This document shows, piece after piece, positions 3,011 to 3,957 of a stretch of DNA of 10,044 nt. Under the pieces are notes generated by a model. The model was not told the origin of the DNA and did no database searches. It was given only the letters and a program-made list of their open reading frames with translations. This DNA comes from Candidatus Aenigmatarchaeota archaeon. Lineage in GTDB: Archaea > Aenigmatarchaeota > Aenigmatarchaeia > GW2011-AR5 > JAGGXF01. Where the stretch lies: positions 17,987 through 28,030 of the forward strand of contig JAOZPR010000003.1 in assembly GCA_029932645.1 (NCBI GenBank), read 5' to 3'. Position 1 is the stretch's first letter; every line of letters starts with the position of its first letter. A program made the position numbers and the translations under genes.

Positions 3011-3364
3011 TTATTGTTCTTTCCAGCTCTCCACGCATGCCTTCTCAAAAATCTTCTTAAGTAGTATGCGCGCCTTTTTATTCACTTTAACATGCCGCTG
3101 TTCGAGCATTTTTGTGAGCTGGGCACAAATCTCTTTTCCTTTTCGGTCGAAATCTGATAAAACAACAACAGATCCACATTTTCCAGCGAGCTCATCTGCA
3201 ATGGCAAAAAGCGCCTTGCCCCTATTAATCTTAATTATTCTTTCAAAGCCAAGTCGCTCTAGCGCTACTTGGTCTTTTTCGCCCTCTACGAGCACAAGCT
3301 CTTTTTTAATCGCCTCTAGAAAACTGCTTTTCTTTACGCCGTTGCTGTTTGTTTTTTTGGACAC
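3011..3364 (-). CDS. Small stand-alone Toprim-domain protein (small primase-like / RNase M5-like)
   Basis: Toprim motifs VLVEGEKD and VLSDFDRKG. Start uncertain: GTG 3364 chosen because the longer 3418 start runs through the K-turn hairpin. Confidence 0.85.
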   Translation of the reverse strand: MSKKTNSNGVKKSSFLEAIKKELVLVEGEKDQVALERLGFERIIKINRGKALFAIADELAGKCGSVVVLSDFDRKGKEICAQLTKMLEQRHVKVNKKARILLKKIFEKACVESWKEQ

Positions 3365-3386
3365 AAAAACCACGCTGATTAGAATG

Positions 3387-3455
3387 GCCCACCAGTAACG
3401 CTGTTCATCACTGCACACAAAACGTGTTAGCTCAGACAGTTGAGGGCTGGTGGGC
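3387..3455 (-). ncRNA. Candidate H/ACA-like K-turn hairpin RNA
   Basis: 9-bp stem GCCCACCAG/CUGGUGGGC, internal loop CCCUCAA/CGUUA, upper stem CUGU/ACAG, box D CUGA (3435-3432) and box C GUGAUGA (3411-3405) in K-turn geometry. TATA TTATAAAAA at 3485-3477. No canonical ACA (3' end reads GGGCCAU). Confidence 0.55.
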
Positions 3456-3513
3456 TAATAAATAACTGATGAGAAATTTTTATAAGCAGTTTTATAGCCT
3501 GTTTTATATCTTT

Positions 3514-3957
3514 TTATAGCCTGCCAATTTCATCATTAATTTCTTGTATTATTTTTTTGGCTTCTTCGTTTGCAATCTTGTCCATGTTCCTTTTGTGATA
3601 TATCTCACTCATATAAAAATCTCGGAACACCCCAGAAAAAAAACCTGTGGTTGTCTTGGGCGCGAGAACAGACTCGACCTGTATATCAACAGAGAGCTCA
3701 GCAGTATTACCCACGTCCTTTTTAATCCCTTCTATATCGAAAAAAAAGACTATCCTAGAGGAACTGTCTATTGTTTTGGTTATATTAAACTTTGATATTG
3801 TTTTGAGAATCGGCCCGTCTGACAACATCCTGTCTTCTTTTTCTTTAAGTCTTCCGTGTCTCGTGCATATCTCTTTTATTTTTTCAGTAGCGAGGTGCGG
3901 CTCAGACACGCTAAAGAATAATTTTTCATTAAGCATCTTATCTATGATTTTTGTCAT
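3514..3957 (-). CDS. Hypothetical protein (147 aa)
   Basis: Long ORF with typical composition, GAGG upstream of ATG, and an ATGA overlap with the upstream small ORF. No family recognised. Confidence 0.75.
   Translation of the reverse strand: MTKIIDKMLNEKLFFSVSEPHLATEKIKEICTRHGRLKEKEDRMLSDGPILKTISKFNITKTIDSSSRIVFFFDIEGIKKDVGNTAELSVDIQVESVLAPKTTTGFFSGVFRDFYMSEIYHKRNMDKIANEEAKKIIQEINDEIGRL

Follow-up and report, generated by a model that had tools for sequence, protein, structure and literature searches.

Pseudouridines in helix 69 of 23S rRNA have been reported in bacteria, E. coli among them. In archaea they are described for positions 1940 and 1942 of H. volcanii 23S rRNA, both of which are guided by stem-loop 2 of sR-h45 (PMC7075261). 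sR-h45 is presented in that report as a double hairpin with H and ACA boxes, and its natural stem-loop 2 as a Cbf5-dependent guide which leaves UNUN unpaired, makes two pseudouridines and needs the ACA. According to the same source, an engineered "perfect 1940 guide" with the typical unpaired UN was still active after its ACA had been changed to UGU, and the ACA is dispensable in H. volcanii for single-hairpin guides with typical unpaired UN (PMC7075261).

A lower stem of 7-9 bp is given as an H/ACA determinant, a stack of 10 layers that begins at the closing pair and reaches up to the sheared G.A pairs as a major one, and 14-15 nt as the distance from the closing pair to the ANA box (PMC4652768). 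The canonical single-hairpin H/ACA sRNAs of Pyrococcus (types 10/5/9 and 10/6/9) are described there with a 9-bp lower stem, a bipartite pocket, a K-turn in the upper stem and 10 layers. Atypical guides reported from Pyrobaculum and Sulfolobus islandicus are K-turn hairpins which work without ACA and are also missing the lower stem (PMC4652768, PMC11077068); for S. islandicus their function is stated to be confirmed in vivo as well as in vitro (PMC11077068). N. equitans is described as having one two-hairpin H/ACA RNA with ACA motifs, and a box C/D guide is located in the intron of its tRNA-Met (PMC3491384). Among the matches listed by a full-text search we found none dealing with DPANN H/ACA guides or with such guides in introns of rRNA, and a pseudouridylation guide borne by an intron of its own host rRNA was an arrangement not found in the literature searched.

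The stretch of DNA analysed here (10,044 nt, further on called the window) comes from a 718 kb genome in 43 contigs with a completeness of 89%. It carries a hairpin on the minus strand (3387-3455, read directly from the sequence) which is likely to work in the manner of an archaeal box H/ACA pseudouridylation guide. Like sR-h45 stem-loop 2, as far as the latter is described, the window RNA combines a lower stem, a pocket and a K-turn hairpin and is matched to the same helix 69 loop; like the engineered 1940 guide, it has the typical UN pairing. Unlike sR-h45, it is a single hairpin naturally devoid of ACA, it pairs with the second U, and a single pseudouridine is predicted. Its 9-bp lower stem, bipartite pocket, upper-stem K-turn and 10 layers are those of the Pyrococcus guides in the published description, but there is no ACA or ANA, the 3' guide strand has 4 nt instead of 5-6 nt, and the 10 layers require an A.C or G.U closing pair and a bulged base. 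Like the atypical guides it is a K-turn hairpin that would work without ACA, whereas the lower stem, which those guides are reported to have lost, is retained here as a covarying 9-bp helix.

Since the lower stem is kept and the ACA is absent, the window RNA is intermediate between the classic and the atypical guide types, and it fills the gap between guides with lower stem and ACA and crenarchaeal guides with neither. The dispensability of ACA reported for H. volcanii, together with the functional guides of S. islandicus, makes an ACA-less guide plausible, and the window RNA constitutes a natural test of the laboratory result that ACA can be dispensed with when the target pairs typically. Box C/D guides in archaeal tRNA introns, such as that of N. 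equitans tRNA-Met, are similar to relatives of the window RNA in being located in a bulge-helix-bulge (BHB) intron, predicted in the latter case, of the RNA class acted upon; here, however, it is the 23S rRNA gene that serves as host, the guide would direct pseudouridylation and the window copy is free-standing. What is unusual in this case is the missing ACA beside an intact lower stem, along with the two kinds of location.

Structure and conservation of the hairpin

The hairpin and its flanks include the following elements, in order of transcription:

3477..3485, minus strand: TATA box TTATAAAAA, ending 21 nt before the first stem base
3447..3455, minus strand: 5' strand of the lower stem, GCCCACCAG, pairing with CUGGUGGGC over 9 bp
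3446-3440, minus strand: 5' loop strand CCCUCAA, with the guide element CCCUCA at 3441..3446
A3440 and C3400, minus strand: putative closing A.C wobble pair (A..C/G..U alternation in homologues)
3436..3439, minus strand: 5' strand of the upper stem, CUGU, pairing with ACAG 3401-3404
3432..3435, minus strand: non-bulged strand of the K-turn, CUGA, box D-like, GA invariant in 20/20 copies
3413..3431, minus strand: apical stem-loop GCUAACAC GUUUU GUGUGC (canonical stem of the K-turn and loop GUUUU)
3405..3412, minus strand: bulged strand of the K-turn, AGU-GAUGA (3-nt bulge AGU, then GAUG, then bulged A3405)
3401..3404, minus strand: 3' strand of the upper stem, ACAG, pairing with CUGU 3436-3439
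3400-3396, minus strand: 3' loop strand CGUUA, with the guide element GUUA at 3396..3399
3387..3395, minus strand: 3' strand of the lower stem, CUGGUGGGC, pairing with GCCCACCAG
3365..3386, minus strand: 3' tail without ACA, CAUUCUAAUCAGCGUGG and the first U5 run (3369-3365), a likely terminator; the tail overlaps the first candidate Toprim starts, GTG 3373 and GTG 3364

The layout given in the original prediction (9-bp stem, loop strands, 4-bp stem, K-turn with 3-nt bulge, apical stem-loop) is present as described. So is the TATA box that had been placed about 21 nt before the 5' end: it occupies 3485-3477, and the distance is 21 nt. With the box in this position, transcription would be expected to begin with the first base of the lower stem or right beside it. 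The K-turn consists of the sheared pairs G3409.A3432 and A3408.G3433, followed by U3407.U3434 and G3406-C3435. As also foreseen, the stem is followed by CAU instead of ACA (C-AUU in the window copy). We regard the element as a single-hairpin small RNA gene of about 70-90 nt. The Rfam search proposed as a check gave no match at 3365-3485 with Rfam 15, even at E up to 10; Rfam misses this small RNA, and the practical value of the present description is better annotation.

Minimum-free-energy folding recovers the lower and upper stems at -27.1 kcal/mol (z = -2.3), and 3 of 200 shuffled sequences fold as well. The single-sequence fold alone is modest support; the decisive evidence is comparative.

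BLAST against 61 genomes (the window's genome, G000, and 60 relatives) found a copy 91% identical in a member of the same genus (G001); in another genus the match was split. From these two matches and the window copy a covariance model was constructed, and it has found homologues in 19 out of 70 genomes of the order, at 20 places, all 20 of them confirmed at E <= 2e-6. There is one copy per matching genome except for G033, which has two, both in 23S rRNA genes.

Standard pairs make up 94.0% of pair cells in the 20 homologues, compared to 72.5 +/- 1.3% in shuffled alignments, and none of 500 shuffles reached the observed value. Sliding the partner strand by 1-3 columns lowers the pairing to 32-55%. 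Changes on both sides of a pair were registered for 18 of the 19 pairs in the 20-copy alignment. Fitting this alignment to the model gave the structure an advantage; the compensatory changes are nonetheless plain in the raw sequences. All nine pairs of the lower stem have both-sided changes, with 98.2% of cells paired in the 20 homologues, and the same is true for all four pairs of the upper stem (CUGU/ACAG; 96.3% of cells paired). The C-G pair below the K-turn GA of CUGA covaries, and so do four apical pairs.

The persistence of the C and D boxes in relatives had been named as something to be checked, and the part of them that forms the K-turn core is fully retained: both GA dinucleotides, the UGA on the bulged strand and the 3-nt bulge are each found in 20/20 copies. 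In most homologues one bulged base follows the fourth K-turn pair. The apical part is free in length and sequence: at its shortest it has 12 nt and resembles a K-loop, and at the other extreme it holds inserts of some 70 nt. Covariation and conservation throughout the order rule out a chance hairpin; judged by sequence comparison, the hairpin is a real and conserved structure.

A loose sequence pattern was also run over 371 genomes of the phylum, where a reversed control pattern matched many genomes as well. Within the order, the copies already known were picked up again, along with two further ones, in G041 and G046, recognised by eye. In its matches outside the order the stem complementarity was absent by eye, and we make no claim beyond the order. 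In one locus (L049, G007) the last 20 nt or so of the guide, GUGACGGGAAAUAUUUUCAU, are repeated about 50 nt downstream, which looks like a duplication, e.g., one left by an insertion.

The proposed guide strands and their match to helix 69

The loop strands are conserved in a different way from the stems. The 5' guide element is CCCUCA in 19 homologues and UCCUCA in the remaining one, while the 3' element is GUUA in all 20. As the stems and the apical part vary freely and the guide strands do not, this is the pattern expected of antisense elements facing an invariant target.

The base after CCCUCA and the base before GUUA occur in just two combinations, A..C in 9 and G..U in 11 of the 20 homologues, and each combination turns up in several, scattered families. 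An A.C wobble pair has the same shape as a G.U one. Since no other combination is found, we read the loop-top bases (A3440 and C3400 in the window) as a wobble pair closing the upper stem, which is what their alternation suggests. It follows that the pocket is CCCUCA/GUUA, one base shorter on each side than the CCCUCAA/CGUUA of the original prediction: the two strands had been read correctly, their extent had not, as the terminal A and C would pair. For the same reason the top of the pocket, which had been put at 14 nt from the end of the stem, lies at 13 nt once the wobble pair is counted.

This shift by one base has consequences for the target. The string predicted earlier, UAACG-U-N-UUGAGGG, was searched for as U[AG][AG][CU]GUNUUG[AG]GGG, i.e., with G-U pairs allowed, and had no match in the 23S and 16S loci of G001, G002, G003 and G031 or in the window's own genome. 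Scored on the rRNAs of G001, that register gave best partial matches with 2-3 mismatches and is one base off on each side. The complement of the shorter pocket is UAAC-UC-UGAGGG, with 4 + 6 perfect Watson-Crick pairs and UC left unpaired: CCCUCA pairs with UGAGGG and GUUA with UAAC, both in helix 69 of 23S rRNA. TAACTNTGAGGG is found exactly once in the 23S rRNA, in helix 69, in each of G001 (same genus as the window), G002 and G003, compared to a chance expectation from base composition of 0.0014 matches in the 4553 nt of G001 rRNA. The same target sequence is present, likewise as a single site, in helix 69 of G038. TAACTNTGAGGG was not found in the 16S rRNAs of G001, G002 and G003, in the 23S rRNA of G031 or in the window's own genome. 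No contig of the latter (89% complete) carries rRNA genes, so the target was read from relatives. The proposal of a non-canonical H/ACA guide thus holds as regards the guide itself, for which the fold covaries, Cbf5, Nop10 and L7Ae are encoded and rRNA offers a perfect target, while the target string that came with it does not.

The target site is the helix 69 hairpin, GGCCC-UAACUCUGA-GGGUC. We take its unpaired U to be U1915 in E. coli numbering. By its sequence context it would be the equivalent of U1940 of H. volcanii, as the loop segment is given there as UAUG 1940-1943 (PMC7075261). Helix 69 pseudouridylation thereby gains a concrete, testable guide candidate, and this in a lineage for which metagenomes are the sole source.

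The 23S rRNA of G031 (L029), which is without the string UAACUCUGAGGG, has a different sequence just before UGAGGG, and this difference may be due to a further insertion, here in helix 69; G031 yielded no guide copy in the model search.

How much weight a complement to rRNA can bear was apparent from a whole-genome descriptor scan. With the A.C pair allowed, it returned 107 hairpins of the general layout, among which the window element alone has 10 layers together with a lower stem of 9 bp and a perfect complement of 10 bp in rRNA. Without the lower-stem filter or the strict target filter the scan yields hundreds to thousands of chance candidates, which shows how readily 9-bp complements come about once G-U pairs are permitted; a descriptor too strict to accept the A.C pair missed the window element. 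As weak complements arise easily, we rely on the combination of a perfect match, guide strands that stay constant and the particular site that is matched.

Compared to the rules set out in PMC4652768, the lower stem, at 9 bp, is of canonical length (7-9 bp). Counted from the A.C pair up to the second sheared G.A pair, 9 pairs and one bulged base add up to 10 layers, a count which needs both the A.C/G.U wobble pair and the bulged A to stack; compensation of a missing layer by a stacked bulge is described for other guides (PMC4652768). With the wobble pair included, the distance from the closing pair to the stem end is 4 + 9 = 13 nt, against the 14-15 nt of the rule. An ACA box is absent from the expected place in all 20 copies. 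An A-N-A triplet is found in 4 of them at 14-nt spacing and in one more at 15 nt, and the triplets that follow one further base past the stem are AUU (the window's genome), AAU, GAU, AAA and similar. Because the defining ACA box is absent, the RNA is not a canonical member of the class and we file it as an ACA-less H/ACA variant.

The proteins whose presence had been suggested as a check, Cbf5, Nop10 and L7Ae, are all encoded in the window's genome. Cbf5 (319 aa) has the domains TruB_N, TruB_C_2, PUA and DKCLD and matches P. furiosus Cbf5 (3lwo) at E = 1.8e-85. The Pfam model of Gar1 detected nothing in the 70 genomes of the order, the window's included; the sensitivity of this search is limited, as it also missed the control Sulfolobus, and Gar1 may be divergent rather than absent.

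From the observed fold, covariation, guide elements, target in relatives and protein genes we infer the course of transcription, protein binding and modification, which we consider likely as a whole. None of the sequencing runs listed for the stretch is recorded as RNA. The small RNA would have a TATA promoter of its own; its transcription would begin at the foot of the lower stem and stop in the U-rich tract that follows the stem. L7Ae would bind the K-turn and Cbf5-Nop10 the 9-bp lower stem and the pocket; in an RNA devoid of the ACA box, the lower stem would be the sole anchor for Cbf5. The pocket would then be paired with nascent 23S rRNA in which helix 69 has yet to fold (UAAC with GUUA, UGAGGG with CCCUCA), leaving the dinucleotide UC unpaired beneath the A.C-closed upper stem, and the U of this dinucleotide, the presumed counterpart of U1915 and U1940, would be isomerised to pseudouridine.

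Free-standing genes and copies within 23S rRNA genes

Thirteen of the 20 copies are free-standing: nothing resembling rRNA lies closer to them than about 1.5 kb. Eleven of these have a TATA-like hexamer whose first base is 28-33 nt ahead of the stem, and the other two have ATTTAAC in the same place (by eye). Eleven of the 13 have a run of at least four U within 20 nt of the stem, which begins within 6 nt in seven of them. In the window's genome and G001 the first U run comes 17 nt past the stem, within the first codons of a small Toprim ORF.

The other seven copies are located in insertions in 23S rRNA genes of six genomes:

L047: copy in a 23S rRNA gene insertion of G003
L045: copy in a 23S rRNA gene insertion of G023
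L051 and L054: two copies in 23S rRNA gene insertions of G033
L052: copy in a 23S rRNA gene insertion of G038
L050: copy in a 23S rRNA gene insertion of G043
L046: copy in a 23S rRNA gene insertion of G063

None of the seven has a TATA-like box, and none has such a U run. By our reading of the flanking conserved sequence, the insertion sites are the tips of helix 89 or helix 91 of 23S rRNA. At both sites the junctions fold into a BHB-like motif: GCAG/CUGC flanked by the bulges CAA and AU(G) at helix 91, and GUUC/GGAC flanked by UUG and AAA at helix 89. A predicted cut after the second base of each bulge restores the loop of the intron-less rRNA of G001 in helix 91; in helix 89 the same predicted cut gives a loop of equal length, one base different from that of G001. 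An insertion in helix 91 of G063 is without the guide hairpin, while seven insertions carry the guide.

The intron copies retain the pocket and the K-turn, and the covariance-model search found no free-standing copy in the genomes that have an intron copy. With no free-standing gene beside it, the intron copy would be the working one. The intron-borne copies suggest that an intron in an rRNA gene can hold a guide directed at that same rRNA; excision of the inserts is predicted.

A broader scenario appears possible, and we put it forward tentatively. The order of small DPANN-type archaea as a whole, with Gar1 undetected in the 70 genomes searched, may rely on a naturally ACA-less H/ACA guide to make the helix 69 pseudouridine. 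This guide may switch between a free-standing gene with its own promoter and BHB introns placed in helices 89 and 91 of the same 23S rRNA that is its target. The intron form would then act as a guide in cis or be released as a spliced, possibly circular intron. If this is true, a circular intron without a free 3' end could explain the loss of the 3'-terminal ACA signal.

Neighbouring genes and alternative readings

The RNA gene of the window lies between two protein genes:

3011..3373, minus strand: gene of a small Toprim-domain protein (Pfam Toprim, E = 2.3e-6), directly 3' of the hairpin
3514..3957, minus strand: conserved gene of a 147-aa protein without a Pfam family, directly upstream of the RNA

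No ATG start is present in the Toprim ORF; first among the in-frame candidates come GTG 3373 and GTG 3364 (window 3362-3373, minus strand), which flank the U5 run 3369-3365, the probable terminator of the small RNA. A 16-nt stretch at the ORF start, GTGGTTTTTGTGTCCA, is identical in the G001 copy.

The original prediction had considered the hairpin as a possible L7Ae-responsive element in the 5' UTR of the Toprim gene. As such a cis-acting leader of the Toprim mRNA, it would control translation or read-through by K-turn binding, and the arrangement in the window's genome and G001 lends itself to this reading: the hairpin ends 13 nt before the first in-frame GTG, the first U5 run lies inside the ORF start, and there is neither space nor a TATA-like sequence for a separate promoter in between, so the RNA's promoter probably drives the Toprim gene in this genus. 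These two genomes, however, are the only ones with Toprim as the downstream neighbour. In other genera the hairpin is followed by an HD-domain gene (G051, G037) or a DnaG-type primase gene (G006), and the ORF that comes next in G002 belongs to the Ham1 family and lies on the opposite strand. Of the 20 copies, seven are inside 23S rRNA genes, most of the free-standing copies have a U run close behind the stem (see above), and a leader would leave the invariant loop strands and the perfect helix 69 match unexplained. We therefore find the leader very unlikely, and unsupported as a conserved function; the Toprim gene is outside the conserved unit, although the hairpin may have a secondary effect on Toprim expression in this genus.

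An L7Ae-bound K-turn RNA could also pair with helix 69 without pseudouridylation, as an assembly chaperone of 23S rRNA or as a decayed guide which has kept binding only. The lack of an ACA box, the failure to detect Gar1 in the order and the copies in 23S rRNA introns, placed to act on the same transcript, would fit such a role, but the hairpin is shaped like a working guide (a lower stem of 9 bp, 10 layers, unpaired UN at a uridine modified in another archaeon), Cbf5 retains its full domain set, and ACA is reported to be dispensable for typical guides both in vitro and in vivo in H. volcanii. We hold this role to be unlikely. A chance hairpin or a box C/D methylation guide is highly improbable. 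Although the single-sequence fold exceeds shuffles only modestly (z = -2.3), chance is refuted by the comparative evidence given above; CUGA and GUGAUGA do correspond to the box D and box C consensus, yet there is a single pair of boxes, located in a hairpin and in D-then-C order, with no C'/D' pair and no guide of 10-12 nt beside box D.

The 147-aa protein gene belongs to the surroundings of the small RNA more consistently than Toprim does: a homologous ORF of about 148 aa lies on the same strand directly upstream of the RNA in 10 free-standing loci from several families. It is a syntenic neighbour of the RNA gene, and we draw no functional link between the two. Its product was considered as a substitute for Gar1, and this idea was dropped, as it belongs to no Pfam family and its fold gives no support for an RNA-binding or Gar1-like role: the AlphaFold model (pLDDT 83) has START/Bet v 1-like structures as its best PDB matches, all weak, with TM-scores of 0.16-0.33.

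Between the stop of this ORF and the RNA gene there are four consecutive TATA-like boxes (window 3477-3520, minus strand), including two occurrences of GGCTATAAAA. The last of the four is the sole one correctly spaced from the stem. Elsewhere in the window, at 308-379 on the plus strand, there is a weak box C/D-like Rfam match to snosnR61 (27.6 bits compared to a gathering score of 45, E = 0.7); it lies inside an M24 peptidase ORF and is probably due to chance.
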